Source: Prorocentrum cordatum (Eukaryota). From it: a DNA stretch of 57,044 bases. The notes beneath the pieces are model-generated. The model was not told the DNA's origin, did no database searches, and was given only the letters and a program-made list of their open reading frames with translations. Location of the stretch: assembly GCA_963575745.1 (NCBI GenBank), contig CAUYUJ010000050.1, positions 62,001 to 119,044 of the forward strand. Reading direction: 5' to 3'. Shown in pieces: positions 3,563-53,712 of this stretch. The position numbers were made by a program, and so were the translations under genes. The number at the start of each line of letters is the position of its first letter. The stretch's first letter is position 1.

Positions 3563-3564
3563 GA

Positions 3565-7904: not shown

Positions 7905-8091
7905 ATGATGCTCCAACCTACTTTAGCCTTGATCACCAGGAAGAATTTCGAGCGCCCAAAAGAGTACCGAAGCTCGAGGTCGCGTGTCGGGCCCTGGGAG
8001 ACACTCGTCCGACACTGTTTCGACACTGTTTCGACACTCTTTTCCGGGTGCTCGAAATTACTTCTGGGATGCGGTCCTTAAGTAGAACGGG
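7905..8091. repeat. Dispersed repeat family A, copy 2
   Basis: Aligns by eye to 883-1062. Confidence 0.85.
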
Positions 8092-10551: not shown

Positions 10552-10583
<32 letters not shown>

Positions 10584-10690
10584 GAGGAGGAGGAGCAGGG
10601 AGGAGGAGGAGGAGGAGGAAGGAGGAGGAGGAGGAGGAGGAGGAGGAGGCAGGAGGAGGAGGAGGAGGAGGAGGAGGAGGAGGAGGGGAG
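9955..10690. repeat. Long (GGA)n microsatellite (~730 bp)
   Basis: Direct reading. Similar tracts at ~6405-6460, 9213-9300, 10890-10985, 14202-14643, 15657-15784, 39170-39222, 40233-40398, 42340-42450, 43395-43745, 43998-44355 and 56975-57044. Confidence 0.97.
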
Positions 10691-11299
10691 CTGCGAGCTT
10701 CCCCCCCGTGGCGCCGCGGCCGCGCGCGCCCGGGGCGCGCCTCCTCTTGCGCTCCCGCGGGGGCCCCCCGCGCAGCCCATCACCGACGGCAGGGCTCGCC
10801 CGCAGCCCCCCCTCGGGGCGCGAGGCGGGCGGCCGAGAGGCGGGTCTCCCCCCCCGATGCCAGGCCTCCTCGGGTCATGCCCCCCCTCCACCCTCCCTCC
10901 CCTCCTCCTCCTCCTCCTCCTTCTCCTCCTCCTCCTCCTCCTCCTCCTCCTCCTCCTCCTCCTCCTCCTCCTCCTCCTCCTCCCCCCGTGCCGAAGGTGA
11001 GCATGGCCCCAGTGTCGAGTATCCAGGGAGGACGCACGGGGCGGCATGTAAGGAGACACACACACAAGAACATACAGTCTCCGATGAGCACCTCCCTTGA
11101 GCTCGCTGGGGTTTTGCCACCGGGGAGACACAGGCCAAGGGGGGCCATTTGGGCTGGACCCAAGTCCCAAACAACCCCCCAATCGGGCTCCACCACCCCA
11201 TGCACATACAATATAGCGACAACTTGCTCACATGGCGCCACAACCGTTGGCCCGTAGTACCCCCTTTGGGAGGTCGCCTGAGTGGTCGGTTCTGTATCG

Positions 11300-29389: not shown

Positions 29390-29879
29390 CCTCCTTCCCC
29401 TCCTCCTCCTCCTCCTCCTCCTCCTCCTCCTCCTCCCTCCTCCTCCTCCTCCTCCTCCTCCTCCTCCTTCCCCCTCTCTCCCCCTCCCCCTCCCTCCCCC
29501 TCCTCCTCCTCCTCCTCCTCCTCATCCTCCTCCCTCATCATCATCATCATCATCATCCTCCTTCTCCTCATCTCCTCTCCTCCTCCTCCTCCTCCTCCTC
29601 CACCTCCTCCCTCCTCCTCCCGTTCCTCCTTCCTCCTCCTCCTCCTCCTCCTCCTCCTCCTCCTCCTATCCTCCCCTCCCCCTCCCCCTCCTCCTCCTCC
29701 TACCTCCTCCTATTCCTCCCTCCTCCCCTCCCTCTCCCCTCCTCCTCCTCCTCCTCCTCCTCCTCCTCCTCCTCCTCTCCTCCTCCTCCCTCTTCCCCTC
29801 CTCCTCCTCCTCCTCCTCCTCCTCCTCCTCCTATTTCTTCTCCTCCTCCCCCTCCTCCTCCTCCTCCTCCTCCTCCTCC
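29390..29879 (-). repeat. (GGA)n tract directly abutting the 3' end of the LINE
   Basis: On the minus strand the element ends ...GGGAGTGCGCTC then GGAGGAGGA...; no poly(A). Confidence 0.95.
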
Positions 29880-29938
29880 GAGCGCACTCCCCTGGAAAGA
29901 CCGAGTCCCGCCGCGTGCGGGCGTCCTGTGAGCTGCAT

Positions 29939-31900
29939 TTAGTGCAGCATCTCGAACATGGGCCAGGCTCTCAAGCCTGGAGGTAAACGTCATTGCGCTA
30001 ACCTCTGAATTGCTTTCCTCCCCCCTTCTGAGGGAGGCTCACAGACTGACTTTAATTTACTGCGGGCCCGTATAGTCCATCCCCCGCAACGGCTACACCA
30101 GCAAATGCCGTTGGTGACTTGTAAATGGGGTTGATGGGACGGGTGCATCGCCAAAACGTGGGGCCTACAGGGTCTCTTTAACCAGGTGGGCATCCGAATT
30201 TTGACACTACCTTGCTTCTTACATCTAAGGCAAGCTAGATTATACTCGGGGGCGACAGGGGCAGCTAAAAGACAGTGAGATGTATTCTGAAAGGCATCCG
30301 GAAGGGCCTGTACACTTCTAAGGGCTCTCACTCTGCTACGCTCCTCCTTCGACTCCTCGTCCTCCTGGGGGAACTGATCCTTGGATTCCCAGTAGTGGGT
30401 CTGGATTGCCGAGAGACGGTCGCAAATCATGTTGGCGTGGATGTCTGCCCCCTGAATCTGGCGGGCCAGCGCGGGCGGTACGCTCCGTCGTCGGGCAGCG
30501 CACCTGGCAATATCATCCACTTGCTCATTCATGTAGAGCGTCCAGGGCGGCTCGTTAGCCGCCTCCTCCTCCGTCGGGTGACTTTTGACCTTCTGGAAAA
30601 ATAGCTGTGCGGCACGGGCTGAGGCATACGTCCAGAACTTCTTCCAAGCCAGAGGGTTACGAGAGTGTCGGGCCCTGGGTCCTTTCAAGAAGCCTTTGAT
30701 GACGTAGAGGCAGTCGGTGACGATGACTAGGGGTCCTCCTGTGGCTTGGAGAAGGTTGATGACTGCGGCAAGTTCAGCGAGAGGGACTGACTGCTGGCCT
30801 CGGATCCCTCCTGAGAGTGAACCGATGAACTGCATCGAGGAGGACCAGAGGGCGGCTCCCCAGCCGCAGACTCGGAGGCGTGCATCCAAGGTGTGCTCCC
30901 CTCCGCTCCCGTCGGTGGCCCCGATGAGGATGTTTGCGTGGCTGAACTTGGCGTGTTGCTGAAAAACTCCAGTTTTGAGGATGTCGTCGTCAAGGGACAT
31001 GATGTGTTGGTGGACTGCGTGTAGGGCCCACCTAGCAGGTACAATCCCTCGGAGCCAGAGGCAGGCATTCTGGGGGCACTCCTGGACAGCTTGAGGTACT
31101 GAACCTTGGGTCTTCTGGATGGCCTCTAAACCTAGCGAGGGGAGCTCGGGGCAGGTCCAGAACTTGTGAAGGTCGTCCGCATTCGGCTGTCCACAAAGTA
31201 GGCAGTCGGCGCGGTCCTGGAGCCCTGCTTCAAATCTGCGCTCTTCACTCCAGCACTTGGAACAGGCAACGGCAGACATAGCGGAGGGGTAGGAGGCGAG
31301 CCTGGTGAGGTGCTCTTCTTTGGTGGCCCTCTGGTCCCTGGTGAGCTCCTCCTCCTCCATCTTCTTCCTCTGCTTCCCGATGACTGCTGCATTCCTGCTG
31401 GGGTAAAGCCTCATTGCTGTGATATCTCCTCCTTCCTCCAACCCTGCGGAATTGTGGCTCTTGGGGCAATTGAGGCTCCAGAGGCGCATGGAGAGGAGGA
31501 ACTGCATGTGATAGAGGAAGCGCTGCTGCTGGTCCCAGCTGAGCGGCTTCACACTGAAAGCCTGGCCTGAGGGGTCCGACCACTGCCAGGCAGCGGTAGG
31601 CCCCCAACCTATGTCGTGAAGGGTGGCGATGACCGCCGACAGGTGCGACTTCACGCGAAGCCACCGATGCTGCGAACGAAGCTTGTCTCGTAGCAGAGGC
31701 CATGCTCTTTGGATTCCTCCCAGGAGACCGAGCTCGTTATTGATGAACCTGAACCAGGTCTGACATAGGTTTTTCCTGAGGAAGATCGCGGGGTCGACTT
31801 CTGCGGGTTCTGCTTTGAGTGCGTGAAGTCCTGTGGTGAGGCAAGCTCCTGATTTAGACACTCCGAAAGCAGATGCGGTCTGGCGGCGCAGAAAAAACAC
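29939..31900 (-). pseudogene. LINE ORF2 C-terminal part: zf-RVT-like motif, RNase H domain, C-terminal Cys/His motifs
   Basis: CLLCGQPNADDLHKFWTCP; RNase H catalytic pattern ATDGSG...QSVPLAELAA...VTDCLYVIKG...KVKSH...NEQVDDIA; CLRC, HPSH, CWCSRCGGW. The TGA at 29990 is probably premature, since the frame continues RLPPGLRAWP to TAA at 29939. Confidence 0.92.
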
Positions 31901-31924
31901 TTCTGAAGGTGAGGTCCCGTGACC

Positions 31925-33313
31925 TTACGTGCCCCATAACATCTGGGGCTGCGCTCCTGTGCGATAAAGAGAACGAGCCTTGGTCGTTGTCCTGGCCAGC
32001 TTCTTGATGTTTCTTGCCCTGAGGAGCCCGAGGGTGCGACGTTTCCTGCGTACCTTTTGGGTCCGACGGCGCCCCACGGAGGCATCCATCCCGAGGTCCC
32101 TGGTGTGGCTGAGGGGCTTGATGCGGATCCCGTGGTCCTGGAGGGTGCCCGCGACGGCCTTGCTGAGGTCCAGGGAACTGGCCAAGACGACGGACTTATC
32201 CGAGAGACGGCAACCTAGTTCGGCAAATCCTTGGCAGAGGTTCACGATTCAACTGGGGAAGGTCTCCTTCAACATGTCGGGGCTGCCGACCATCCGAATT
32301 CTTATGTCGTCCACCCATGTCCTGATGGTGGGCCTTGGGATCTGGTAGTGGGCCCTCTCGAGTACCTCGTAGAGTAGGGCCCTGGCCCATGGTACACTCT
32401 GTCCGCACCCTTGAAGTATAGACATGAGTGGCGTTAGCGGGTTGCTGACCCCGATAGGCGTAGTGAGGACCCTGACAGCGGTGTGGACCAGGACCCCAAG
32501 GGAGAGCGGGACCACGGGGTAGCTTAGCTGCAGCGCCTTCTGGGAGAGCTTCTGGATATCTATGGTGTCAAAAAGCTTTTCGAGGTCGAGCACGCCCTCG
32601 ACGATGCTGGCCTGGAGTGCCCCTCCGGTCTCAGCGAATACCTCGCTGACCAGAGCGGCCTGTAGACAATCACTACCTTTGGTGGCTGCATCCCAGAAAC
32701 CAGCCCGAGCTTCTTCCCAGGATGATATCTGGCCTTTGAAGAGCCCCATGGTGACCCGATAGGGCGCATTGGTGAGGGTGATGGGTCGGTCACTGATTTC
32801 CGTCTTGGGCTTGAGGGCCACGAGGTTTATTAGACATTGGGCTGGATACTGCTGCAGCCTACATATATCATTGATCATATCTGTTAGGATCTCCAATCCT
32901 GCTTCTGGTAGTCGGCGAAGGTCAGCGGTGCGCCACTGGTCGGCGCCAGGTGCCGAGCTGGCAGGGAAAGACTTAAGCGCGGCTGCTACCTGGGTGGTAG
33001 TGAACTGGTCGTCTTGATCCCAAGAGTCCCGTGCCTGCTGCCTAATCTCTTGAATCCATTGGGCCTCGGGGGGGACCTCCAACTTGTTTCCCTCTGGGTC
33101 CCGGAACTTCATCCCAAACTCGCTCTTGTGACCTAAGACCTGCATGGGGTCCGTAACTATGTTGCCATTGGCATCTGTGAAGATATCGTTTCTCCTCGGG
33201 GGTGGGGCCTGGGATCTTCGTGATATGGTGGGCGCCGCCGCCGCCGCGGGCGAGGGAGTCCTCGAGCCACGACTGGAAGGCAGCATCCTGCTGCCGCAGG
33301 GCCTCTTTCTCAT
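31925..33313 (-). pseudogene. LINE ORF2 reverse transcriptase domain (frameshifted or interrupted)
   Basis: SAPGADQW, LKPKTEISDRPITL, LDLEKLFDTID, SILQGCGQS, TWVDDI, then RLSDKSVVL and TRDLGMD. Confidence 0.93.
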
Positions 33314-33869
33314 AAAACTGGACTGCCACTTCTAGCTGGAAGAGGGCGTCTTCGAGTTGGTCCTCCTGAAGGTTCCCGAGAAGGTACTTCTTGATCAGGT
33401 CCTGGAAATCCTGAAGGGCCCCAGGGGGCCACGGGAGGCCTTGGTTGACGATGTCGCTGATGTACCCCTGGAGTCTCTGGAAACCTTCTGAGCGGGGCTT
33501 GATCTTGTGGAGCTGGTCTCTCTCCTTTGCCCTTTGCTGGAGAACTCCCCATTGGTGACTGGCAGGGTGTGGACGCTGCTGGAAAGGAGTGGGAGGGCAG
33601 ATGTCTTTCCATTCGCACTGGAAGCCTTCAGCTCGCCCAAAACACGGTGGACAGCTCGGCGGACTCCCAAGACAGCACCCCTCCAAGGCCTGACTAAGAC
33701 GAGCGCGCTGGTGGGTCAGGTCGGGGGAGGAGTGGGCGGCGGCAAAAGGATGAGAAATCTCTGGCGGACCTTGCCAGTCCAACTGAGCCTGCGCCCAGTA
33801 GTGATGCCATGGTGCCGCGGGGGCCGATGGCGGTTGGAGCGAGGCCGCTCGCTTTTGAAACCAACCCTG

Positions 33870-34535
33870 CCTGATCATGATCTCTGTCTGGAAGGTCGCC
33901 CGCAAGCCGATGTGCGGCTTCCAGGGGCTGGTGAGGTCGGTCTCTACCCTGAAATATTCTCCAAAGAAATTGCTGATGGTGAAGAAATCGATGAGCCTAC
34001 CTCCCGAACATGTACTGTGGATCTCTGGAGCCTTGATGGTGCCCTCGAGAGCTCCTCAGGGGTCATGTTGAAATCCCCTCCGGTGATGAAGGGGAGCTTG
34101 CGCTGCTTGAGGAAGATGGTGATCTCTCGGACCACCTTGTTGTTGAACGCATTGTAGCCTACCCCCGACTGTAGGTAGACTGAGATGAGAACTATGTTGC
34201 GCTGACTCAGACGGACTATACAGGCGGTCCAATTAGTCCTTCCCACTAATGGTTTGGCCTGCCCCTTTCCGTTCATGATGCGCGCATGCGAGTGAAACTG
34301 CTTTGACACGAATAACCCCACTCCGCCTGAGCTGCCTGCGGGAGTGCGAGCTGCTGGGCACTGATAGCACTTGTAGCCCAGCTTCCCCATGAACTTGCTA
34401 GCTTCTCCCAAACGTCCTGAAACCAGATGCGTCTCCCCTAGCATGATGATTCCTGGTTGTCCAAAACTCGAAGCTTGAAAATAATCATTGGCTTTCTTGT
34501 TCCAATTAGTGATATTGGCATGGTAGATGGTGAAA
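33870..34535 (-). pseudogene. LINE ORF2 apurinic-like endonuclease (APE/EEP) domain
   Basis: In frame: TIYHANITNW (upstream of the listed ATG), MLGETH, SGGVGLFV, LISVYL, GGDFNM. Confidence 0.9.
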
Positions 34536-34588
34536 CTGTCATGAGCCCCTGGGGGGGGGGGCGGGTGTGTCGTGGCCGAACGCCACGC

Positions 34589-35510
34589 TCACCTGGACCC
34601 GTCCCCCCCCCTGGCCCCTGCTGCAGGGCGCGGGCAACTGCGGCTGCGGGGCTTCTGCTCATGAGTCCTGCTGCCTCCCGCCAGATCACGCCCACGGGCT
34701 GGGTCATCACCAGCTGCAGCTGCGGCACCATCAGCACGACGGGGTGGTGCTGCGGGTTGTTGGGCTGCTGCCTTGGGCTTGGCCTTCTTGGCCTTGGCCT
34801 TCGGGAGCAGGCCTTGAATTTTCTCGAGGTCCTCGAAGAACTGCTTGGCGTTGTTGCCTTCCTCTCCCTCCATGCCCTGGACGAACTTGAGGAGCTCGAC
34901 TGGCACTTTGGGGAGTTGAACGGCTGGTCCTTCTTCGATGTCTTCCTCCATGGGGGCGCCTCCGCCCCAGCCACGGGTGGCCTCGACGCTGGCGGCCTCG
35001 AAGTTGGAGCGGGCCTTCGCGAGCTCCTCGGCCGTGGTGTCGAACTCCTCCTGCGCGGCTGTGACCTTGGCCTCCAGGTCGGTGATGGTCTCCTTGAGGT
35101 TCTCCTGCTTCTTCTCGAGGCGCCGTACCTCCTGGAAGGCTGGTGGCTGCAGCAGCTGGTGGTTTCTTCGGCGACTGGATCAAGCCCTGCATCTTTTTGC
35201 AAGCCTCGGTGCCCAGGTCGTCCTTCTGCTCGGGTGTGAGCTTTGCGAGGAGGAGTGAGAGGATCTCTTTCATCTCGGATGGCTTCTCCTGCTGCTCTTT
35301 GTCCTTGCCGCTGGGGCCTGAGGTGCCGTTGTTGTCCTGGCCCTTGCTCATGGGAAGGTCGAACGGCTGCCCACAGAGGCGGAACATCTTCTTCCGCGCC
35401 TTGTTCAGATATTGTCATTCTCCACAACTTGAACAGACGCAGTACTGACGTCGACGTTGCTGCTGCTGCTGGTAGGACTGCTGGTATGCCCACCACGAGT
35501 TGCCACCCAT
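34589..35510 (-). pseudogene. LINE ORF1: N-terminal Cys4-type zinc finger plus coiled coil (one internal TGA, one frameshift)
   Basis: ATG at 35510 in GCAGCCATGG context: MGGNSWWAYQQ...YCVCSSCGE*QYLNKARKKMFRLCGQPF (TGA at 35417-35415); coiled coil RRLEKKQENLKETITDLEAKVTAAQEEFDTTAEELAKAR. Confidence 0.75.
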
Positions 35511-35633
35511 GGCTGCTGAACTGTCGGTGTCTGGCCGACGGGAAACTGGAAAGCCACTGCTGGCAAGATGCACTTCGAGCCCGTGCTGCGGGGCTCTCAG
35601 CCCCCTTAGAGCCCGATCGGGTTCTAAAAGAGC

Positions 35634-35655
35634 CTTGAGCCAAAATGGCTACGGA
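35634..35655 (-). other. Perfect dinoflagellate spliced leader (DinoSL) at the LINE 5' terminus
   Basis: Plus strand cttgagccaaaatggctacgga = reverse complement TCCGTAGCCATTTTGGCTCAAG, 22/22 to DCCGTAGCCATTTTGGCTCAAG. Confidence 0.98.
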
Positions 35656-35656
35656 T

Positions 35657-36118
35657 CTCCTCCTCCTCCTCCTCCTCCCTCCTCCCTCCTCCTCCTCCTC
35701 CTCCTCCTCCTCGTCCTCCTCCTCCTCCTCCTCCTCCTCCTCTTCCTCTCCTCCTCCTTCCTCTTCCTCCTCCTCCGCCCTCCTCTCCTCTTCCTCCTCC
35801 TCCTCCTCCTCGTCCTCCTCCTCCTCCTCTTCCTCTCCTCCGCCCCTCCTCCTCCTCCTCCTCCTCCTCCTCCTCCTCGTCCTCCTCCTCCTCCTCCCCC
35901 TCATCCTCCCCCCTCCTCCTCCTACTCCTCCTCCTCCTCCCCCCCTCCTCCTCCTCCTCCTCCTCCTCCTCCTCCTTCTCTCCCTCCTCCTCCTTTTCCT
36001 TTCCCCTCCTCCTCCTGTTCCTGTTCCTCCTCCTCCTCCTCCTGTTCCTGTTCCTTCTCCTCCTCATCCTCCTCCTCCTCGTCCTCGTCCTCGTCCTCCT
36101 CCTCCTCCTCGTCCTCCT
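35657..36118 (-). repeat. (GGA)n tract directly upstream of the SL-capped LINE
   Basis: Minus strand reads ...GGAGGAGGAGA-TCCGTAGCC... Confidence 0.95.
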
Positions 36119-36239
36119 GGGCCCAGGATGAGCCTTGCCAGGATCGGCGTGGGTGTATAGCTGGTGCCCTCCGCTGTGAGGGGCGACGTTCGGGGGGATA
36201 GGCTCAGAGGGAGAATGCAGCGACCCCCCAATGTCGGAG

Positions 36240-36425
36240 GCGAGCGAGGGGGGAGCTGAGAAGGAGGAGGCCTTCTCAGAAGGCGGCGGGACTTCTCAGA
36301 GGCCCTCGCGCCTTCTGAGAGTTTCGTTTTGTCTTCGGGGAAGGCTTAGAAAACTTGTCAGAAGGCCGGGTGGCTTCCGAACCTTCTGAGAAGGCCTTCT
36401 CCTCCTCGCTCCCCCCCTCGCTCGC
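36240..36425. mobile_element. MITE-like element with ~43-bp terminal inverted repeats containing CCTTCTCAGAAGG
   Basis: gcgagcgagggggga..gagaaggaggaggccttctcagaagg pairs with ccttctgagaaggccttctcctcctcgctcccccctcgctcgc. Confidence 0.7.
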
Positions 36426-36689
36426 CGCCGAGAACCTCGCCCATCCAGCGCCGACTGGGGCCTGACAGCCCACCCCGCCCAGGAAACCTATCTCGGATCT
36501 ATCCGCGATGCCTCGCCGATGCCAGGGCGACGTCCCCCCCACTGTGGAGCCGGTTTCCCCGATGGCTCTCCCCCAAGGACGGCCGGCCGCCACGCGAAGG
36601 AGATCGATCCGCGCAGTCCTCTCGCGGACTGCCGGCGGTGGCCCCCCCCCCCGCGAGGTGCGGGGAGGTCCTGGTCGCCGCGGGCGGGG

Positions 36690-37625
36690 AGCCCTCCTCC
36701 TCCTCCTCCTCCTCCTCCTCCTCCTCCTCCTCCTCCTCCTCGTCCGCCTGGTCTTGGCACCCCAAGGGCGGACGCAGGACGCCTCCGGCGACGGAGCCGC
36801 ACTCCCTCCTCCTCGGGGGAGGAAAAGGTATACCCATATCGCGGCCCTTTTTCCTCGTCTTCCCCCTTTTGGGGTCTTCCTCCTCCTCCTCCTCCTCCTC
36901 CTCCTCCTCCCTCCCTCCTCCTCTCCCCTGTTCTCCTCCTCCTCCGCCTGTCTTGGCACCCCGGGCGGACGCAGACGCATCCGCGACGGAGGAGCACTCC
37001 TCATCCCTGGGAGGAAGAGGTACCCACATCGCTCCCCTTTTTCCTCGGTTCCCCCTTTTGGGTCTTCCTCCTATCCTCCTCCTCCTCTTCCTAAGCCTCC
37101 TCCTCTCCTCCGTCTCCTCCTCCTCCTCCGCACGTCTTGCACCCCAGGGCGGACGCAGGACGCATCCGGCGACGGAGCCGCACTCCCTCATCCTCAGGGG
37201 AGGAAGAGGTACCCACATCGCGACCCTTTTTCCTCGTTTTCCCCCTTTTGGGTCTTCCTCCTCCTCCTCCTCCTCCTCCTCCTCCTCCTCCTCCTCCTCC
37301 TCCTCCTCCTCCCTCCTCCTCCTCCTCCTCCTCCTCCTCCTCCTCCGCCTGGTCTTGGCGCCCCAGGGCGGACGCAGGACGCATCCGGCGCCGAGCCGCA
37401 CTCCCTCGTCCTCGGGAGGCAAAGGACCCCTATCGCGGCCCTTTTTCCTCGGTTTCCCCCCTTTGGGTCTTCCTCCTTCTCCTCCTCCTCCTCCTCCTCC
37501 TCCTCTTCCTCCCTCCTCCTCTCCTCCTCTCTCCTTCTCCCCCTCCTCCTCCTCCTCCTCCTCCTCCTCCTCCTCCTCCTCCTCCTCCTCCTCCTCCTCC
37601 TCCTCCTCCTCTTCCTCCCTCTCCT
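36690..37625. repeat. Four tandem ~130-bp units, each separated by (CCT)n tracts
   Basis: gtcttggcacccca.gggcggacgcaggacgc.tccggcgacggagccgcactccct...atcgcggccctttttcctcg...ttttgggtcttcc starts at ~36751, 36950, 37134 and 37352. Confidence 0.9.
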
Positions 37626-38179
37626 GGGAGGCCCTTGTCGCCACCGCTGGCTTCGCCTCGAAATCCTGGTCAGAACGCGCCCCAGGAGAGGTACGGGGAG
37701 CAGCGGTATCGGTACCTTTCTCGTTTCCCCCCACACCCGACCCGCGCCGGCGGGCGGAAGCCCGTCAGGACCCGGTACATGTAGTGCCTGAGATTGACGA
37801 CGGCGTTTGCCTCCATACGGGTTGCCCATGGGCAAGACGGCCGTGTCCTTCGCGACCGCGGCACCGACCCGCGAGCACGACCGATGTTCGCTCCTTCCGA
37901 TGTTGAACAGCAGCCCCGCCAACCATATTCACCCCTTCGCTGAGCAAGACACTGCCCTCAGAATTCTGAGGGTTTCGCCGCGCACACGCTGGCTTGCCTC
38001 AGGTGGGTCCCTCCATGTGGGTGGGCGTTGAGAAGCTGTAGCTTGCAGGTGCCGTGGAAGACGCCAACCCGCAAGCTCCAGCCAAGAATGAACTGTTGAA
38101 TTACTATTGACGCCACGACACTATGCGAGACGTGCCATCTGAACATCGATGCCACTGGACAAGCACAGTGATAATCCGT

Positions 38180-38645
38180 ATTGGCATTATAAATAAGAGC
38201 ATGCCGATGGGCGGCTCCATGCTCCCACAAAAAAGCCTGTCTGCTGCCATGGCCCTCTCTTCTCACGCGTGCTGATCCATGCATTGTTACTGATAAACAT
38301 GCTGCTTCGCATTGCCTTTCTCGCACGCGCTGAACCAAGCGTTGTGATTGATGGCGGTTGCATGGGCTGCATTTCCCCCTTTCTTATCTAGCAGCTGCTG
38401 GGCGCACGCAGACTGCCCGTCCTTCTCGCTAGCGCCGATGCCAGCACTGCAGCTGATGGTGTCAGGGTCCAGTGTCCACAATAAATTTGCCCGCTGCCAC
38501 TGCCCGCTGCCACTGCCCGCCCTTGTCGAACGTGCTGTTCCAAGCAGTGTAGCTAACGGTGGTCGGGCGGCTCGAACGTGGCCTCCCACATCGCGCCCAG
38601 CAGCGCAAACACCCGCTGCCACAGCCTGCCCTTATCGCACGTGCA
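38180..38645 (-). pseudogene. Decayed PPR array of the dinoflagellate SACEKGxQWQRAL type
   Basis: Across frameshifts: TCDKGRLWQRVFALLGAMWEATFEP; VSYTAWNSTFDKGGQWQRA; DPDTISCSAGIGASEKDGQ; INHNAWFSACEKG; ISNNAWISTREKRGPWQQ. Confidence 0.8.
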
Positions 38646-40479
38646 GAACATGGGAATGCAAAGGGAGATGGCATGAGAAAACAGCCGTCCCAAGGCGGAT
38701 AGGGGCGGTGTGAGGGATGGGTTGCGATGGGCCGTGGGGGGTGGAAGGGGGAGGGAACGGGGGAGGAGGGAGGAGGGAGGCGGGAAGGCGGGGAGGGGAG
38801 GGGGAAGGGGGTCAGGTTGGGCAGGGAGGGAGATCAGCCAGGGGAGAGGGAGGGTGTGGGATGATGGGAGGGGGAGGTTGAGGGAGGAGGGGGGATGGGG
38901 GAGGCGGGGGGGGGAGGATCATTCGGGCAGGTGGCAAGTGACGCCTCTGCAATGTCAGAGTGCCAACCGTGTGCAGGTACGGCTGCACCCCGCCCCCGAC
39001 AGCTGTCGTCGTGGGTCGGGGAGCTGCCGGCGGGGGCCCCGACCCCCTAGGTGCCCCGAGACGGCAAAGTGGATCACGGGAGCAGGCGGGGGCCCAGCCA
39101 CGACGGGCGCCCAGAGTGCCAGAGCGGCAAGCGGAAGGGAGCGAGGGGGGGAGGAAGGACGAGCCATGGCTCCTCCTCCTGCTCCTCCTCCTCCTCCTCC
39201 TCCTCCTCCTCCTCCTCCTCCTGGGGGGGAAGGAGGGGGAGAATGCACCATTGCTTGTGCCAAGCTCTTTGCAGCATGGTACTCTCTGTCTCATCCTCGT
39301 CAGCATCTCATCACAGTAGTATTCCTCGCTCCCTCCTTCCCCGCCGTCCACATCCCTACATGTGGGGCCGATCATCAGGGAACTTCCCTTCTGGATTTGG
39401 CACAGCTTGTGTCCATCACTTTTCAGGAATGTGTCCCAGCTTCTGGACTCCAGCATGTGGACCGTGCTGAACGCACGAGTCCAGTTCTGCGTCTTCTTGA
39501 GTTTTACCTGGATTTCTGCTCATCTTCTGACAGTTGTGCCAGTGCTCTCACTCCATCAGTTGACTGGTTGTGCTATCCTTTCATCTTCTGACGGTGAGAC
39601 TAATCATGCTCGCAGGCGCCAGCAGTGCTCCTCTGCGGCGACTACAACATGGGGAGCTCGGGATTCGGGAGGAGCAGACGGGGAGAGAGCGTGATGTGGA
39701 CATGCACCGAGAAAACGATGTCGACGATGAGGAGTCGCAGCATGTGCGGTGTCTGGCTGGGAGATGCGGGGCGAGCACCAGAGGAGCAGGAAGTAGTGAT
39801 ACTGCTGCGCTCCAGACTTATCGAGACCCCCCGGGCTCCCAAGACAGTCGGTGCCCTGAAGAAGGAACCCTTTTCGTTGGGGAGGGGCTCCGTGTTCCTT
39901 AATTGTTTCGCAGCTTGCCTTAGATTTTCCCTAGGTTTTCGATACGAAATCGAAGTTCAACTTAATTATGGAGAAGAGGGGCCTCGTTCCTTATTCAGGG
40001 TTCCTTGGGTCAACGCCCCGACTGTATCTTCTGTTGTTCCGCACGGGGCCTAGTCACCGGAGCCGCACGCACACCCTGGAACTCCTGGAAAGCACCCGCA
40101 GCTGGGCCAGCAGCGGCACCCGCCGCAGCGGCCGCGGCAGCAGCGGCAGCCCGCAGGAGGGCACGGCCGAGCTGGTCCGACGAGAAACCAGTGGGGCTCG
40201 GCCGGGCCCTGGTCACTGGAGGGGAGAGCTGACTCCTCCTCCTCCTCCTCCTCCTCCTCCTCTCCTCCTCCTCCTCCTCCTCCCTTTCCTCCTCCTCCCT
40301 TTCCTCCTCCTCCCTTTCCTCCTCCTCCTCCTCCTCCTCCTCCTCCTCCTCCTCCTCCTCCTCCTCCTCCTCCTCCTCCTCCTCCTCCTCCTCCTCCTAT
40401 CGCACCATGAGGTCATCCTCGCCCCAGAGCGCCACGGCGGCGTCCGCAGTCGTCCGGGGCCAAAATCTGAAGCAGAGTT

Positions 40480-42819: not shown

Positions 42820-45800
42820 AGAAGTGCGCGCGGCGTCTAGGCCAGAACCACACTTTGAAAACGAGCCGCGCCCCCCATCCGCGAAGCTCTCAGCTCTCAC
42901 ACACTTGTCGCACGAACGTGCGAGGCGCCAGGGCGAAAACCACATTTTGACACACGAGCCGCCCTCCATCCGTGAAGCTCTCGCGAACTTTGAAATACGA
43001 ATGGGAGCGACGCTTAGGCGAGAGCCCACATTTTGAAAACGATTCGCTTTCCATCAGTGAAACTGTTGCAGATTCCAAGCTGCAGGATCAGAAAGGGCGA
43101 GGAAGTCTCAGGCGGAGCGCCCAGCCCGCCCTACCGACTCCCAGAATGCGACAGGAAGGACTTGTTTTTTTTATTTTATTTTTTTCTTTTTTTTTTTTTT
43201 TTTTTTCTGTTTTTTTGTTTTTTTTTTCTTTTTTATTGTTTATATTTTTTATTTTTTTCTTTTTTTTTTGTTGTTTGTCTTTGTATTTTTTTTTTTTTTT
43301 TTTTCTTCTTTATCCTTTTTCTGCTTTTTTTGTTTTTTTTGTTTTTGTTTCTGTTTTTTTTTTTGTTGTTTTTTTTTGTTTATAAGGTGAGGGATGGTGA
43401 GGAGGAGGAGGAGGCGGAGGAGGAGGGGAGGAGGGGAGGAGGAGGAAGAGGAGGAGGAGGAGGAGGAGCAGGAGAAGAAGAGAGAAAAGCGGGCGACGAG
43501 GAGGAGGGAGGAGGTGGAGGAGGTGGAGGAGGAGGAAGGAAGGAAGGAGGAAGGAGGAGGAACAGGAAGGAGAAGGAGGAGGAGGAGGAGGGAGAAGGAG
43601 AAGAGGAGCAGTAGGAGGAGGAGGAGGAGGAGGAGGAGGAGGAGAAGAGGAGGAGGAGGAGCAGGAGGAGAAGGAGGGGAGGAGGAGGAGCAGGAGGAGA
43701 GAAGAGCAGTGATGAGGAGGAGGAGGAGGAGGAGGAGGAGGAGCAGAAGGTAGTAGGGCAGAGAACAGGGCAGAGGAGGAGGCGGAGCCCCGGGTTGTGC
43801 CAGGCTGGAGGAGGAGGTGGAGGAGGAGCCTCACGGGAGGCCCGGCTCCGGCGCCTGGGACCTGCTCACGCGCGGCGCCGTGGCGCCGGAGCACCCCGAT
43901 TGGGCGAAGGGCGCGGAGTTCTTCTGGGGCAGGGGCCGCGAGGAGGCTCCAGGCGGGGCCTGCCGCCCGTTCTCTCTCTCTCTCTCTCGTCCGCTTACTC
44001 CTCCTGCTCCTCCTCCTCCTCCTCCTTCTCCTCCTCCTCCTCTTCGTCCTCCTCCTCCTCTTCCTCCTCCTCCTCCTCCTCCTCTTCGTCCTCCTCCTCC
44101 TCCTTCTCCTCCCTTCCTCCCCTCCTACCTCCTCACCCCCCCTTCTCCCGCACCTCGGTACTCCTCCTGCTCCGCCTCCTCCTCCTTCTCTCCTCCTCGT
44201 CCCTCCTCCCCTCCTCCTCCTCCCGCCTCCTCCTCCTCCTCCTCCTCCCCTCCTCCTCCTCCTCCTCCCTCCTCCCTCCCTCCTCCTCCTCTCCTCCTCC
44301 TCTCCCTCCTCCTCCTCCTCATCCTCCTCCTCCTCCTCCTCCTCCTCCTCCCCTTTCTCCAGCAGCGCGGCGGGAACTCCTGCGCGCCTCTTTCTTCCCA
44401 GGTTATACCGTGCTTGGAAAGCGGATCCTTGGTCATCTTGGAAGCTTGGATGCTGGAAAGCGAATGCGCGCGGCGCTGAGGCGAGAGTTAGATTTCGAAG
44501 CCGAGCCGCCTTCAATCCGTGAAACTCGTGCACACTGTTGACAAAGAATGCGCGCGGCGCTGAGGCAGGAACTAGATTCTGAAAAACGGCCGCCTTCAAT
44601 CCGTGAAACTCGTGCACCTTTTTAATAACGAATGTGCGCGGCGCTGAGGCAGGAACTAGATTTTGAAGAACGGCCGCCCTCAATCCGTGAAGCTCGCACA
44701 AAGTGTAAAAGCTCGTGGCGCTAAGGCGAGAGCTAGATCCTAGATAAAAAGACGGCCGCCTTCAATCCGTGAAAACCGTGCACCTTTATAAAAAACGAGT
44801 GTGCGCTGAGGCGAGAGCTAGATTCTGAAACTGAGCCGCCCTCAATCCGTGAAGCTCGCACAAAAGTTTCAAAGCGAATGCGCGCGGCGCTTAGGCGAGA
44901 GCCAGATAAAACAAAAAAGAAACGGGCGCCTTCGATCCGTGAAACTCGTGCACTTTTACGACAGCGTATGCGCGCGGCGCTGAGGCGAGAACCATATTTT
45001 GAATTCGAACCGCCCTCAATTCATGGAACTCGTGTGCATTTGTATAGCGAATGTGCGCGGCGCTGAGGCGAGAGCTAGATTTTGCATCCGAACTGCCCTC
45101 AATCCGTAAAGCTCGTGCACATTTGAAAAACCAATGCGCGCGGCGCTGAGGCGAGAGCTAGATTTTGAAATGGATCCGCCTTCGCTCCGTGAAACTCGTA
45201 CATTTTTAAGAATGCGAATGCGCGCGGCGCTGAGGCGAGAGCTAGCTTTTGAAACCGAGCCGCCCTCAATCCGTGAAATTCGTGTACACTTTTATAGCGA
45301 ACGTGCGCGGCGCTGAGGCGAGAGCTAGATTTTGCATCTGAAGAACCGCCCTCAGTCCGTGAAGCTCGTGCACAGTCTTTAGACAGAGCGTGTTCTACCG
45401 CTGCTGGCCCCCCTCCCCCCTCACCGCCGGCAAACGATTCCAGCTCCTCGGGACAGTCGGACAGTGGTGGAGATACTGGGACAGTGGTGGGGACAGTGGT
45501 GTGGGGACAGTGGGACAGTGGCGCGTACAGTGGGACAGTGGTGGGAACGGTGGTAGTGGGAACTTTGGTGAGGGGACAGCGGGACAGTGGTGGGGACAGG
45601 GGGACAGTGGTGGGGACGGCAGTGGTGGGGACAGTGGTGAAGGCGGTGGTGAGGACGGTGGTGGGACAGTATTACAGTGGGGAGAGTGGCGGGGACAGTG
45701 GGGACAGTGGGACCGTGGTGGGGACAGTGGGGACAGTGGGACAGCACAGTAGGACAGCGGCGGGGACAGTCAGTGGGACACTGGTGGGAACAGTTGGGAC

Positions 45801-47260
45801 AGTGGGACAGTGGTGGGGAACGTCGGGAGACTGGGGAGAGTGGGACCGTGGTGGGACAATGGTGGGGAGAGTGGGGACAGTGAGACTCTGGTGGGGGCGC
45901 TGGTGGAGACAGCGAGGACAATGGTGGGAGCAGTGGGGACAGTGGGACACTGGTGGGGACTGAGGGACAGTGGTGGGGACGGTGGTGGTGGGGACAGTGG
46001 TGTGGGGACAGTGGGACAGTGGTGGGGACAGTGGTGGTGGGGACAGTGGTGAGGGCGGTGGCAGAGGTACAGTGGGGAAAGTGGTGGGGACAGTGGGGAC
46101 AGTGGTGGGCACAGTGGGACAGCTCAGTGGGACGCGGCGGGGACAGTGGGACAGTGGGACAGTGGGGACGGGGGACAGTGGGACAGTGGTGGGGACCGTG
46201 GGGAAATCGGGGAGAGCGGGACCGTGGTGGGAACAGTGGTGGAGACAGTGGGGACAGTTCGACAGTGGTGGGGGCACTGGTGGGGACAGTGGGGACGGTG
46301 GTGGGAACAGTGGGGACAGTGGTGGTGGGGACAGTGCTGGTGGGGACAGCAGTGGGGGATGTGGTGCGGATGGTGGTGGGGACCCGGGAGTCGCTTGCCG
46401 GCGGTGAGTGGGGGGGGGGAGTTCGAACCGAACCGGTAGTGACCCCCCCCGTTTTCTGGAGTGAGGGGGGGGTTCGAACCAGTAGTGACCCCCCTTGGTT
46501 TTCTGGAGGGGGGGGGGTTCGAACCGGTAGTGACCCCCCCCGGTTTTCCGGAGGGGGGGGGGGAGGTTAGGGTAGGGGGGTTTTGCCGGGGGAAAGGGGG
46601 GGGGGTCCAGCAGGAAAGCGGGGATTTTCGAAGGGGGGGGGGAACCCCAGGCTCCAGAGGAAGAGGGGGGGGAAATTTTCCACAGCAAAGCGGCGGTGGA
46701 TCACGCTCTCTCCATTTTCGAAATCGAGCCGCCTTCACTCCGTGAAGCTCGTGCACATTTAAGAAAGCGAATGTGCGCGGCGCTGAGGCGAGAGCCAGAT
46801 TTTGAAACCGAGCCGCCTTCAATTCCTGAAACTCGTGCACTCTAAAAAACACGGATGTCCGCGGCGCTGAGGCAGACTAGACTTTGAAACCGAGCCGCCC
46901 TCAACCCGTGGAGCTCGCACAAAGTTTACAAGCTCGTGGCGCTAAAGCGAAAGCTAGATAAAAAAAGACGGCAAACAAAAACGAATGTGCGCTGAGGCGA
47001 GAGCTAGATTCTGAAACTGAGCCGCCCTCAATCCGTGAAGCTCGCGCCAAGTTTAAAGCGAATGCGCGCGGCGCTAAAGCAAGAGTTATTTTTTGTTTTG
47101 AATCCGTGAAGCTCGTGCACATTTAAGAAAGCGAATGCGCGCGGCGCTGAGGCGAGAGCTATCTTTTGAAACCGAGCCACCCTCAATCCGTGAAGCTCTT
47201 GAACATTTTGTCAGTGAATGTGCCCGGCGCCTGGCGAAAACAAGATGTTGAAAACGAGCT
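42820..47260. repeat. ~84-bp satellite in three blocks (~42820-43060, ~44455-45375, ~46715-47260), interrupted by two unrelated segments
   Basis: Unit gaatgcgcgcggcgctgaggcgagagctagattttgaaaccgagccgccctcaatccgtgaa(a/g)ctcgtgcac; gaatg at 44462, 44546 and 44630 gives period 84. Confidence 0.93.
45385..46709. mobile_element. Non-autonomous TIR element carrying a (GGGGACAGT/GGTG)n minisatellite, inserted in the 84-bp satellite
   Basis: Outer inverted repeats 45385-45405 / 46689-46709 (18/21); inner inverted repeats 45420-45441 / 46387-46408 (20/22); three ~38-bp ggttcgaacc units at ~46410-46550. Confidence 0.75.
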
Positions 47261-47619
47261 TGGGGTGGACTTTTTTTTTCTTCTGTGTTTGCTGTTTGCG
47301 CGGTGCTAAGAATATCACCCCGCTGAAATCCCCAGTGGGATTTATTGTGAAGGCCTGACGGCTGGTGACGCTGAAAGACATCTACGACGACCAGGAGGAG
47401 GAGGACGAGGAGGAGGAGGAGGCGGAGATAAGGAGGAAGGATAAGGAGGCGGAGATAAGGAGGAGGAGGAGGAGGAGGAGGAGGAGGAGGAGGATCAGCA
47501 TGGCGATGCGAATCTGACCCCCCCCCTCCTGGCCCCCCCCCCCAGCTAAGACCACCCAGGGGATTTCTTTCCCTTTTTAAAGATCGGGGGGGGGGCTTTT
47601 TAGATATTTCTTAGGGATG

Positions 47620-49195
47620 CTCAACAGCGTCCGTCTCCAATACAACACCCAGTGCTCGACGGCTCCCGTCTCCAGCACAACACCCAGTACTCAACAGCAT
47701 CCCGCTGCAAGAGAGACTCCTTAGGAGTTCTGTTGTAATCCCAATCCGCGCGCCGCCCGCCCGCCCCCACGCCGCCCGCCCGCCGTGCTTCCGCGTTCAA
47801 CACAACATTCAGTACTCAACAGCCCCCGTCTTCAACACAAAATTGGGTACTCAACAGCCCCCGCCTCCAACGCAACACTCAGTATTCAGCAGTATTTAGC
47901 AGCATCCCGCTGAGTTTTATTCCCGATCGGCCCGCCCGCCCGCCGTGCTTCCGCATTCAACACAACGCCCCGTGCTCAACAACGTCCGTTTCCAACACAA
48001 CGTGGGGTATTCAACAGCTTCCATCTCAAATACAAGACCCAATATTCAACAGCATTCCGTTGCAAGAGAGAATCCTCCGGATTTTTATTATTGAAATCCC
48101 GATCCGCCTGCCCGCCGCCCGCCCGCCGCCCGTTCGTCGCCCGCCCCCCGCCGCCCGCCCGCCGTGCTTCCGCGTTCAAAAACACACCCAGTAGTCAACA
48201 GCGTCCGTCTCCAATACACCACCCAGTGCTCGACAGATCCCGTCTCCAACACAACACCCAGTATTCAACAGCATCCCGCTGCAAGAGAGACTCCTTAGGA
48301 GTTCTGTTGTAATCCCGATCCGCCCGCCGCCCGATCCGCCCGCCGCCCGCCCGCCCGCCGCCCGTCCGCCCCCCGCTGCCCGTTCGCCGTGTTTCCGCGT
48401 TCACCACAACAACCAGTACTCAACAGCGTCCGTCTCCAACACAACATTCAGTACTCAACAGCCCCCGTCTCCAACACAACACCCAGTACTCAACAACATG
48501 CCGCTGCAAGAGGGAATCCTTATGATTTTTGTTCAAATCCCGATCCGCCCGCCGCCCGCCGCCCGCCCACCGCTGCCTGTTCGCAGTGTTTCTGCGTTCA
48601 ACACAACACCCAATACTCAACAGCGTCCGTCTCCAACACAACACCCAGTACTCAATAGCCCCCGTCTCCAACGCAACACCCAGTACTCAACAGCATCCCG
48701 CGGCAAAAGAGACTCCTTAGGAGTTCTGTTCGAATGCGATCCGCCCGCCGCCCTCCCGCCCGCCGCCCTCTCCCCGCCGCCCGCCCGCCGTGCTTCCGCA
48801 TTCAACACAACGCCCCGTGCTGAACAACGTCCGTCTCCAACACAACGTGGGGTATTCAACAGCCCCCGTCTCCAACACAACACCCAATATTCAACAGCAT
48901 CCCGCTGCAAGAGAGAATCCTTAGGAGTTTTATTGAAATCCCGATCAGCCCGCCCGCCGCCCGCCCGCCGCCCGCCCGCCGCCCACCCCACGCCGCCTGC
49001 CCACCGTGCTTCCGTGTTCAACACAACATCCAGTAACTACTCAACAACTCCCGTCTCCAACACAAAACCCAGTACTCAACAGCTCCAGTCTCCAACATAA
49101 CACCCAGTACTCAACAGCATCCCGCCGCCCGCCGCCCGTCCGCTGCCCGCACCCCGCCGCCCGCCTGCCGTGCTTCCGCGTTCAATTCAACACCC
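47620..49195. repeat. Higher-order satellite: ~3x35-bp subunits + gcaagagagactccttaggagt block + (GCCC)n, ~200-bp period
   Basis: aacacaacacccagtactcaacagcgtccgtctcc subunits; about 7 higher-order copies. Confidence 0.9.
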
Positions 49196-49359: not shown

Positions 49360-51565
49360 TCATGGCCCCACAAGGAGCTCCACCGAAGGCCCCAGTGCCG
49401 CTGCCCGCATGCGTCCCCCACACCCATTTCGGCACACCCCTCACACGCTTCGTTGCCCCACAGGGAGCTCCACCGAAGGCCCCAGTGGCCGCGGCCGCAT
49501 GCGTCACCCACACACATTAGAAACCATTTTCGCACACCTCTTCACACGCTTCGTGGCCCCATAGGAGCCCACCGAAGGCCCCAGTGCCCGCGGCCGCATG
49601 CGTCACCCCACAACCATTTCCGGCACACCCTCCACACTTTTCGTTGGCTCCATATGGGCTCCTACGAGGCCCATTTCCCGCGGCCGGGGGGGGGGAAATT
49701 CCGTCCACCCTCACCCATTTCGGCACACCCCCTCACAACGTTTCGTGGCTCCATAGGAGCTCCGACGAGGCCCCAGTCCCGCAAGCCCGCATGCGTCGGT
49801 TCCACCCCCCATTCTGGCACACCCCTCACACGTTTCGTGGCCCCATAGGGAGCTCCACCGAAGGCCCAGTGGCTGCGCCCAGCCCATGCGTCCACCCGAC
49901 CCTTTTCGGACAAATAAACTCCCGTACACACCTTCGGTGGCTCCATAGGGAGCTCCACCGAAGGCCCAGTGCCCGCGCCCCGCCATTGCGGTCCACCCAC
50001 ACCCCGTTTCCGCACACCCCTCACACGTTTCGTGGCTCCATAGGGCCTTAGGGAGTTCCGCCGAAGGCCCCAGTGCCCGCGCCCGCATGCGTCACCCACA
50101 CCCATTTCGGCACACCCCTCACACGTTTCGTGGCTCCATAAAGAGCTCCTCCGAAGGCCCCAGTGCCCGCGGCCGCATGCGTCACCCACACCCAGTTCGG
50201 CACACCCCTCACACGTTTCGTGGCTCCATAGGGAACTCCACCGAAGGCCCCAGTGCTGCCGCCCGCATGCGTCACCCACATCCAATTCGGCACACCCCTC
50301 ACACGTTTCGTGGCCCCATAGGAGCTCCGCCGAAGGCCCCAGTGCTGCCGCCCGCATGCGTCACCCACACCCATTTCGGCACACCCCTCACACGTTTCGT
50401 GGCCCCATAGTAGAAGCTCCGCCGAAGGCCCCAGTGCCCGCGCCCACATGCGTCCCGCACACCCATTTCGGCACACCCCTCACACGTTTCGTGGCCCCAT
50501 AGGGAGCTCCACCGAAGGCCCCAGTGCCCGCGCCCGCATGCGTCACCCACACCCATTTCGGCACACCCCTCACGCGTTCCGTGGCTCCATAGGGAGCTCC
50601 ACCGAAGGCCCCAGTGCCCGCGCCCGCATGCGTCAGCCACGCCCATTTCGGCACACCCCTCACACGCTTCGTGGCTGCATAGGGAGCTCCACCGAAGGCC
50701 CCAGTTCCCGCGCCCGCATGCGTCAGCCACACCCATTTCGGCACACCCCTCACACGCTTCGTGGCTCCATAGGGAGCTCCACCGAAGGCCCCAGCGCCCG
50801 CGCCCGCATGCGTCGCCCACACACATTTCGGCACACCCCTCACACGATTCGTGGCTCCATAGGGAGCTCCACCGAAGGCCCCAGTGCCCGCGGCCGCATG
50901 CGTCCCCCACACCCATTTCGGCACACCCCTCACACGTTTCGTGGCTCCATAGGGAGCTCCACCGAAGGCCCCAGTGCCCGCGGCCGCATGCGTCCACCAC
51001 ACCCATTTCGGCACACCCCTCACACGTTTCGTGGCTCCATAGGGAGCTCCACCGAAGGCCCCAGTGCCCGCGGCCGCATGCGTCCCCCACACCCATTTCG
51101 GCACACCCCTTACACGTTTCGTGGCTCCATAGGGAGCTCCACCGAAGGGAAGCTCCACCGGAAGGCCCAGTGCCCGCGCCGCATGCGATCAGCCACACCC
51201 ATTCGGCACACCCCTCACACGTTTAAAAGGGGGCTCCATAGGGAGCTCCACCGCCGAAGGCCCCGTCAGTGCCCGCGTCCGCCATGCCTCCCTACAACAC
51301 ATTTCGGCACACCCCTCACGCGTTCCGTGGCCCCGTAGGGCTCTCCGCCGAAGGTCCCAGTGGGTGTCCCGCATGCGCCGCATGCTCCCGCACACCCGTA
51401 TTCTTATTCGGCTTCGTTCGACTTCGGCAACACCCCTCTCACACGTTTCGTGGCCCCATAGGGAGCTCCACCGAAGGCCCCAGTGCCCGCGCCCGCATGC
51501 GTCCCGCACACCCATTTCGGCACACCCCTCGTACGTTTCGTGGCCCCGTAGGGGGCTCCACCGAG
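49360..51565. repeat. 90-bp satellite, array 1
   Basis: acccatttcggcacacccctcacacgtttcgtggctccatagggagctccaccgaaggccccagtgcccgcgcccgcatgcgtcacccac; exact 90-bp period from 50461 to ~51140. Confidence 0.97.
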
Positions 51566-51904
51566 AAGATATTCACAACTGCAGTATTCACAATTGCATA
51601 TGGTTGGGTCCTTCGCCAGGGTAATTTTTTATTGTGGGGCCCCGGAACGCCGGAAAACAATCGAAACAACTTCCGGGTTGGGAGGGTGTTTGGGGGTTGT
51701 CCGGGAAGTCATCAGAAATTGTTTTGTGTTTATTTGTGGGCCCCCAGAACCTTCAGAAAATTACCATGGCGACGTACCCAACCCCTGCGCAACACGGGGC
51801 ATGAGTAGCTTGGGATACGTTATACGGAGGTGATGGCGTGACATGGGCGCATATACTTCTGCAAGCGGCATTCGTGAGGCTCGCAACCCCCCAGGGATTG
51901 TGAT

Positions 51905-52172
51905 GTCCCGCTCAGATCTGCTTGGTGCCTCGCTCCGCTGGACCCACCAGCAGCCCTCGAAAGTGGCGACAATTTCGCAGATCGCGACCCCCCAAAGACG
52001 GCGAGGTCCCGCTCAGATCCGCGCGGTGCCCCACTCCGCAGGAACCACCAGCAGCCCTCGAAAGTGGCGACAATTTCGCAGATCGCAGCCCCCCAGGGAC
52101 GGCGAGGTCCCGCTCAGGCCCGCGCGGTGCCTCATTCCGCAGGAACCACCAGCAGCCCTCGAAAATGGCGAC
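51905..52172. repeat. ~100-bp tandem repeat, ~2.7 copies
   Basis: gtcccgctcag...ccaccagcagccctcgaaa(g/a)tggcgac three times. Confidence 0.85.
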
Positions 52173-52317
52173 GTGTCGCGTAAACACGAAAAACTTGCGA
52201 ATTGGGAGTTTTTTTGTTTCCCAACCATCCTGTGGTGTTGGGTCCTCGTTTTGAAGAGACGGTGCCCCGCGTTCCCGCCTCCTTCCTCCCTCCCTCCTCC
52301 CCCCTCCTCCCCCTCCC

Positions 52318-53712
52318 ACGCCCATTCTGGCACACCCCTCACACGTTTCGTGGCCCCATAGGGAGCTCCACCGAAGGCCCCAGTGGCTGCGCCCGCATGC
52401 GGTTCCACCCCCCAATTCTGGCACACCCCTCACACGTTTCGTGGCCCCATAGGGAGCTCCACCGAAGGCCCCAGTGGCTGGCGCTCGGCTGCGGTTTCCA
52501 CCCCCCTTTCGGCACAACCCCTCACATGGTCCCGGACACGCTTCGTGGCTCCATAGGGAGCTCACCGAAGCCCCCCAGTGGCTTCCGTTTTCGCATGCTG
52601 TTCCACGGTTCCACCCACCAATTTCGGCACACCCTTCACACGCTTCGTGGCCCCATAAGGGCTCCACCGAAAGCCCCAGTGGCTGCGTTCGCATGCGGTT
52701 CCACCCCCCATTCTGGCACACCCCTCACACGTTTCGTGGCCCCATAAGGAGCTCCACCGAAGGCCCAGTGGCTGCGTTCGCATGCGGTTCAACCCCCATT
52801 CAGGCACACCCTACACCACGTTTCGTGGCCCCATAGGGAGCTCCACCGAAGGCCCCCAGTGGCTGCGCATCGCATGCGCTCCACCCCCACATTTCGGGTT
52901 TCGGCACAGCCCTCACACGTTTCGTGCCCATAGGGCAGCTCCACCGAATGCCCAGTGGCTGCGTTCGCATGCGGTCCACACCCCCAATTTCGGCACACCC
53001 CTCACACGCTTCGTGGCCCCATAGGGAGCTCCACCGAAGCCCAGTGCTGCGTTCGCATGCGGTTCCACCCCCCCTTTCTGGAACACCTTAACACGTTTCG
53101 TATGGCCCCATTATAGGAGCTCCACCAAAGGCCCCAGTGGCTGCTCTCGCATGCGGTTCCACCCCCATTCTGGCACAACACCCTCACACGTTTCGTGGAC
53201 CCATAGGGATCTCCACCGAAGGCCCCAGTGGCTGCGTTCGCATGGCGGCGCCGCGCCCAATTTGGCACACCCCTCGCACGTTTCGTGGCCCCATAGGGAG
53301 CTCCACCGAAGGCCCCGATGGCTGCGTTCGCATGGCGGCGCCGCACCCCATGTGGCACACCCCTCACACGTTTCGTGGCCCCATAGGAGGGATCTCAACC
53401 GAAGGCCCCAGTGGCTGCGTTCGCATGGCGGTTCCGCACCCATTCTGGCACACCCCTCACACGCTTCGTGGCACCATAGGGAGCTCCACCGAAGGCACCA
53501 GTGGCTGCGTTGGCATGGCGGCGCCGCACCCAATTTGGCACACCCCTCACACGCTTCGTGGCCCCATAGGGAGCTCCACCGAAGGCCCCAGTGGCTGCGT
53601 TGGCATGGCGGCGCCGCACCCAATTTGGCACACCCCTTTCACGTTTCGTGGCCCCATAGGGAGCTCCACCGAAGGCCCCAGTGGCTGCGTTGGCATGGCG
53701 GCGCCGCGCCGA
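52318..53712. repeat. 90-bp satellite, array 2 (variant cagtggctgcgttcgcatg)
   Basis: Same core as array 1 with a different variable segment. Confidence 0.95.

Follow-up and report, generated by a model that had tools for sequence, protein, structure and literature searches.

We analyzed a long interspersed nuclear element (LINE) of the dinoflagellate Prorocentrum cordatum. It lies in a locus at positions 29,390–36,118 of a 57,044-nt stretch of DNA (assembly GCA_963575745.1, contig CAUYUJ010000050.1, positions 62,001–119,044 of the forward strand; hereafter the window, with coordinates counted from its first letter). The 3' end of this element is a short tandem repeat instead of poly(A). The repeat is GGA here, and it is AGT, ATC, AAC or AC in relatives from metagenomes. 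Our results support the view that the 3' repeat is not accidental but characteristic of the LINE lineage. On balance, we lean towards the explanation that every LINE family has a microsatellite of its own, which it carries and to which it homes. The element in the window is best read as a full-length, dead copy that was probably reverse-transcribed from an mRNA already bearing the trans-spliced leader of its host.

Structure of the LINE Locus

The sense strand of the element is the minus strand. On this strand, the order is a (GGA)n tract of 462 bp, one A, a 22-nt spliced leader, the LINE, and a (GGA)n tract of 490 bp. The LINE occupies 29880–35656 (5,777 bp). An earlier sequence-only reading of the window had described this order, with a 3' untranslated region (UTR) of about 60 nt, a small hairpin in it, and no poly(A) between two co-oriented tracts. 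Tandem Repeats Finder (TRF) and the leader match bear out the order and the two tract lengths, and both tracts read GGA on the sense strand. The hairpin is present, and the 3' UTR measures 59 nt once a TGA private to this copy (29992–29990) is replaced by TAA (29941–29939) as the stop of open reading frame (ORF) 2. The features of the locus are as follows.

35657..36118, minus strand: 5' flank, imperfect (GGA)n of 462 bp (TRF, 155.7 copies, 81% matches)
35634..35655, minus strand: dinoflagellate spliced leader (DinoSL), full 22 nt (core match plus T at 35655; DinoSL as given in the part of PMC5585692 used here)
34592..35510, minus strand: ORF1, with a zinc-knuckle-like start and a coiled coil, broken by TGA 35417–35415 and one frameshift
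34589..34591, minus strand: sole in-frame TGA between ORF1 and ORF2 (adjacent stop-to-stop ORFs 34589..35179 and 33944..34588)
33944..34588, minus strand: ORF2, putative apurinic/apyrimidinic endonuclease (APE)-type part, then a frameshift (Pfam Exo_endo_phos, E 0.0098, below the cut-off)
32249..33331, minus strand: ORF2, putative reverse transcriptase part with a WVDD motif, ending at TGA 32251–32249 (Pfam RVT_1, E 0.085, weak)
29993..31924, minus strand: ORF2, C-terminal 644 residues with a zf-RVT-like region, RNase H (about 30494–30868) and a Cys/His C-terminal motif (Pfam RNase_H, E 2.9e-8; alignment)
29941..29939, minus strand: true ORF2 stop TAA (sequence, contigs of sequencing run X1, alignment of relatives)
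29938..29880, minus strand: 3' UTR of 59 nt with the small hairpin cccgc/gcggg and no poly(A)
29390..29879, minus strand: 3' flank or tail, imperfect (GGA)n of 490 bp (TRF, 162.7 copies, 82% matches)

The 21-nt core of the spliced leader was matched at 21 of 21 positions (35634–35654, minus strand), with no match in 100 shuffles, and a single extra A (35656) stands between the leader and the 5' (GGA)n. The DNA-encoded leader is therefore at the exact 5' end of the element, as in DinoSL-tagged retrocopies. At the other end there is no A-run: the sense strand goes from ...GAGTGCGCTC directly into GGAGGAGGA. That one flanking tract arose as a long duplicate of the other was also considered and rejected, because by eye their interruptions show no common pattern when the tracts are read in register.

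Microsatellites at the Ends of Environmental Relatives

A scan with a six-sequence alignment (A2) gave 11 metagenome loci (L001–L011) at 25–30% protein identity, in which 54,170 bp were examined; L004, L005 and L007 stop short of their 3' ends. All six microsatellites that TRF found in these loci lie at element ends, five after the 3' UTR and one on the 5' side. A repeat directly follows the 3' UTR in 6 of the 11 loci, of which five were detected by TRF and the sixth is L008.

L003, 6202–6369: (AGT)n, 248 nt past the ORF2 stop (TRF)
L003, 1–41: (GTA)n at the 5' edge, upstream of a leader remnant (TRF)
L006, 10002–10107: (ATC)n, about 50 nt past the ORF2 stop (TRF)
L009: (AAC)n after the 3' UTR (TRF)
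L010: (AAC)n after the 3' UTR (TRF)
L011: (AC)n after the 3' UTR (TRF)
L008: AC/AAC-like run of about 42 nt after the 3' UTR, then unique DNA

The visible full repeat lengths are 106–490 bp. L008–L011 have conserved 3' UTR blocks in common, which end in ...GTGCGGAAC immediately before the repeat; when the 3' UTRs of the window element and the relatives were compared, no homology was found outside this group. The DNA of L009 and L010 is only 66–76% alike and both carry (AAC)n, which indicates that the repeat was inherited with the lineage.

L003, at 25% protein identity, has the architecture of the window with a different repeat, that is, repeat, leader remnant, LINE, and the same repeat again. 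At its 5' edge, (GTA)n leads without a gap into two 9-nt remnants of the spliced-leader 3' end, then the 5' UTR and ORF1. The 5' edge is visible in two copies, the window LINE and L003, and each of them is flanked by a single type of repeat, upstream as well as downstream.

In L006, a relic spliced leader (17/21) begins within one base of (ATC)n and heads an ORF unrelated to the LINE (10002–10807). This leader and ORF may be a retrocopy from the host that was integrated where the repeat ends. Open frames on the LINE strand of the same locus (362–9952) reach about 9.6 kb upstream of the stop, and the L006 LINE may be oversized.

GGA Tracts and Other Copies in the Window

The GC content of the window is about 60%, and TRF showed that it is very dense in simple repeats. 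About 23 GGA/CCT tracts cover 6.8% of the window; without the LINE locus the coverage is about 6%, or about 3% per orientation. One random insertion would hit a GGA/CCT tract about once in 15 times, so that this single copy alone is only suggestive. In the 11 kb from 29390 to 40398, all 10 GGA/CCT tracts have the same orientation, with CCT on the plus strand. The LINE flanks would be co-oriented in any case, because insertion into one tract gives co-orientation. The rest of the window has GGA/CCT in both orientations, including the facing pairs 9961–10690/10896–10983 and 43399–43743/43998–44351.

The sequence-only reading had also suggested that this LINE family could explain the roughly 20 other GGA tracts of the window. 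Such an origin is not supported. A blastn search of the window with the LINE gave no other copy, and the last 23 nt of the 3' UTR occur there once, even with up to three mismatches allowed. When the last 120 nt of the LINE were locally aligned with the 120 nt upstream of the 22 other GGA/CCT tracts, none (0/22) exceeded the shuffled controls. A tblastn search of the window with 150 clade proteins gave 184 matches, all inside the LINE. In these searches the 5' (GGA)n was preceded by no family 3' end, so this tract is not a tail left by a sister copy further upstream.

A tandem satellite of about 190 bp is located just upstream of the 5' repeat of the LINE (36693–37618). Each unit consists of a short (GGA)n on the minus strand and a conserved unique part of about 130 bp, and some of the GGA tracts of the window are embedded in this satellite. 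A satellite of about 90 bp forms long arrays with 90-, 180- and 270-bp units at 49363–53707, and several other satellite families are found at 44457–49125.

Proposed Homing to a Cognate Microsatellite and Rival Explanations

The homing explanation can be described as follows. Transcription would run into the repeat behind every copy, and because a copy is always followed by the repeat, the LINE RNA is predicted to end in a few repeat units. Once a genomic microsatellite of the matching type is nicked, the (TCC)n 3' end exposed there would pair with this RNA tail and prime reverse transcription. Each new copy would thus end up within the cognate repeat in a fixed orientation, flanked by the repeat at either end. 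The parts that we infer are the RNA tail, the pairing step and a GGA tract older than the insertion. The proposal of the sequence-only reading that GGA is either the target or the tail of this family holds in kind, given that all six TRF microsatellites of the relatives are at element ends, and the same data do not tell tail and target apart.

Several observations weigh against this explanation. The flank evidence within this very family comes from one copy, and only two 5' edges are visible overall. Four of the repeats in relatives, namely those of L009, L010 and L011 and the (GTA)n of L003, are at contig ends; assemblies tend to break there, which inflates such sightings. On the 3' side of L001 there are only A6 and five CA units at the contig end, and on that of L002 there is A12 followed by GTAGTTGTAGT at the contig end, so the L002 subgroup may have a poly(A)-like end. 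The 128-nt 3' region of the window element has no fold beyond that of shuffled sequences (z = −0.12), the small hairpin included. The two flanking (GGA)n tracts have decayed alike (81% versus 82% matches), and thus neither shows a sign of being a younger tail made by the element.

The equal decay would also suit another scheme, in which the endonuclease itself recognizes and nicks (GGA/TCC)n, the RNA has no repeat tail and does not pair, and the apparent 3' tail is the downstream half of the target. This scheme fits the flanks as well as homing does, the window LINE and L003 both having the repeat upstream and downstream, and the sections of PMC3812793 that treat Waldo, Mino, Kibi, Koshi and Dong give sequence-specific cleavage as the usual explanation for these elements. 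However, there are at least five repeat units among seven lineages, and L009 and L010 have AAC whereas L011 has AC, despite their homologous 3' UTRs. So many units would require repeated re-tuning of protein specificity, and a change of the RNA tail is simpler, which is an argument and not a test. We therefore regard cleavage specificity as an unlikely explanation when taken alone. It is more doubtful still that (GGA)n is only a tail, templated or slipped, of an element that integrates anywhere, with the upstream GGA present by chance or left behind as the tail of an earlier element. Simple-repeat tails do occur in several LINE clades (CR1, L2, RTE and I), the short repeat run of L008 is followed by unique DNA, and GGA tracts are common in the window. 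However, a co-oriented tract would be adjacent by chance in about 3% of cases, and L003 would require a second such event, with (GTA)n. Two-sided repeats in the two visible cases, together with the absence of a family 3' end upstream of the 5' tract, argue against a tail at a random site and also against a head-to-tail array of sister copies.

A random insertion may simply have landed or survived in repeat-rich junk DNA and lost its original tail, whether poly(A) or another. One copy taken alone, at about 1 in 15, would allow this, and passive accumulation near CA repeats has been proposed for Drosophila Waldo-A/B (PMC3812793, same sections). However, the repeat begins right after the last base of the UTR, without an A-run, and the relatives have their lineage-specific repeats at the same place, with no TRF microsatellite elsewhere in their 54 kb. 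A lineage-specific 3' repeat argues against both a lost poly(A) and a chance landing, and we consider such a history improbable.

Homing to a cognate repeat is thus the explanation that we retain. A bolder form of it is that RNA, not protein, sets the target. The 3' repeat units would guide pairing with any nicked matching microsatellite, a change of tail (GGA, AGT, ATC, AAC, AC) would change the target, and this machinery would also insert leader-capped mRNAs of the host at the edges of repeats. The last step is hinted at because a relic leader directly follows (ATC)n in L006. We put this form forward tentatively, as a possibility that may well turn out to be wrong.

Coding Capacity and Classification of the Element

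This copy of the LINE is dead. It has in-frame stops at 35417–35415, 32251–32249, 31927–31925 and 29992–29990, and several frameshifts. Two of the stops are private to it. At TGA 32251–32249, all nine covering X1 contigs have G at 32249, which gives Cys, and at TGA 29992–29990, all three covering contigs have C at 29992, which gives GGA (Gly). The relatives continue past the position of the latter TGA with the same C-terminus ("..GRLPPGL..WP" in the alignment). Read-through of this TGA restores the C-terminus of the clade, and hence the real stop is TAA 29941–29939.

ORF1 has counterparts in an ORF1-like stretch of the relative P0001, as seen in the alignment, and in the ORF1 start of L001. 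ORF1 and ORF2 of the LINE are in one frame, with TGA 34589–34591 between them, and this arrangement hints that ORF2 is perhaps expressed by stop-codon read-through.

The element has the make-up of an APE-type (L1-like) retrotransposon without long terminal repeats (non-LTR), in that a putative AP endonuclease is followed by a putative reverse transcriptase. The endonuclease and reverse transcriptase matches of the window itself are weak, and the firmer signal for this class comes from the full-length relatives and the clade profile. The full-length relatives match Pfam RVT_1, zf-RVT and RNase_H, and P0019 and P0027 match RVT_1. With a profile of 10 full-length relatives, the nearest solved protein was human L1 ORF2p (E 4.6e-12); a phmmer search of the PDB with the single relative P0004 gave no match.

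An exhaustive search found 1,335 protein relatives at E ≤ 0.001, most of them about 30% identical and a few of them 92–94% identical fragments. Judged by these proteins, the LINE clade is large and divergent. At the DNA level, 349 contigs of sequencing run X1 lie on the LINE at 80–100% likeness (43, 106, 124 and 76 in four likeness bands), and parts of the LINE are present in three metagenome runs. These two results indicate that the family is multi-copy and marine. The X1 contigs were aligned to the element without the repeats at both ends and inform on copy number and consensus letters only; among the loose ends listed for them, none is at the 3' end of the LINE.

Other searches gave nothing further. 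No homologue was found in a protein search with the 644-residue C-terminus, which covered near lengths only. A peptide reading from the 3' UTR into the repeat gave no other copies among the called ORFs. Genome-contig and viral-contig collections, searched with a single protein and then with alignment A2, gave no related loci, and the exact 19-nt 3' UTR pattern had no match in viral contigs. One exact match to this pattern, in a spirochaete metagenome-assembled genome (L012), was single and was taken for chance.

Comparison with Known Systems

Simple-repeat 3' tails instead of poly(A) are known from CR1, L2/UnaL2, RTE and the I factor. Like these, the elements studied here have no poly(A), and in L008–L011 a family-specific short tandem repeat directly follows a conserved 3' UTR. 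Unlike them, the repeats of the window element and its relatives are long wherever they are fully visible (106–490 bp), and they are also found upstream at both visible 5' edges.

The telomere-repeat LINEs of Bombyx, TRAS and SART, enter their tandem repeat in a single orientation, and read-through target repeats at the 3' end of their RNA are thought to help priming. They have poly(A) and one fixed target. The present element is similar in its one-orientation insertion into a tandem repeat, but the repeat differs between lineages of its clade and there is no poly(A).

Microsatellite-specific APE-type LINEs have been described in animals, namely Waldo on ACAY, Mino on AC, Kibi on TC, Koshi and Dong, as listed in the parts of PMC3812793 used here. 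For the microsatellite-specific R1-clade LINEs of animals, it is proposed that the endonuclease specifies the target. The element of the window resembles them in being an APE-type LINE embedded in a simple repeat, which flanks it at either end, and in having related lineages on different repeats. It differs in its dinoflagellate host and in having the trans-spliced leader of that host as its 5' end. It also has RNase H, and L1 ORF2p is its nearest solved relative, which does not settle whether it belongs to the R1 clade. GGA is not among the repeats named in those parts of PMC3812793.

DinoSL-tagged retrocopies, or "recycled cDNAs", have been reported in dinoflagellates (PMC5585692 in part, PMC6050394 in abstract). 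Like them, the window LINE is a DNA copy that starts with the 22-nt spliced leader described in that part of PMC5585692. Unlike them, the retro-copied RNA is that of the LINE itself, whereas LINE machinery is only presumed in the same portions of PMC5585692 and PMC6050394, and the leader abuts a microsatellite. The window also contains an ordinary leader-tagged retrogene, the ORF at 1506–2945 on the plus strand, which has a double relic leader (1586–1606 and a second to about 1630). A 27-nt inverted repeat (1536–1562/1566–1592, 96% complementary, 3-nt loop) runs directly into this double leader.

In the literature, taken at abstract level together with parts of PMC3812793 and PMC5585692, we found no description of the combination seen here. 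Microsatellite-specific LINEs in animals, simple-repeat tails and leader-tagged retrocopies in dinoflagellates are already known separately. An L1-like dinoflagellate LINE clade with RNase H, a leader-capped 5' end, lineage-specific 3' repeats and insertion in a matching repeat did not turn up together.

Implications for Dinoflagellate Genomes

Dinoflagellate genomes are very large, repeat-rich and full of retro-copied genes. To our knowledge, the elements that do this retro-copying have barely been described. If homing to a cognate microsatellite is true, it would explain where the insertions go, namely into harmless repeat tracts, and why they lack poly(A). Leader-tagged retrocopies that start at repeat edges might have the same explanation. 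If the RNA tail guides the choice of target, this would be a naturally reprogrammable insertion system, and it would tie the very high retrogene load of dinoflagellates to microsatellites and LINEs.

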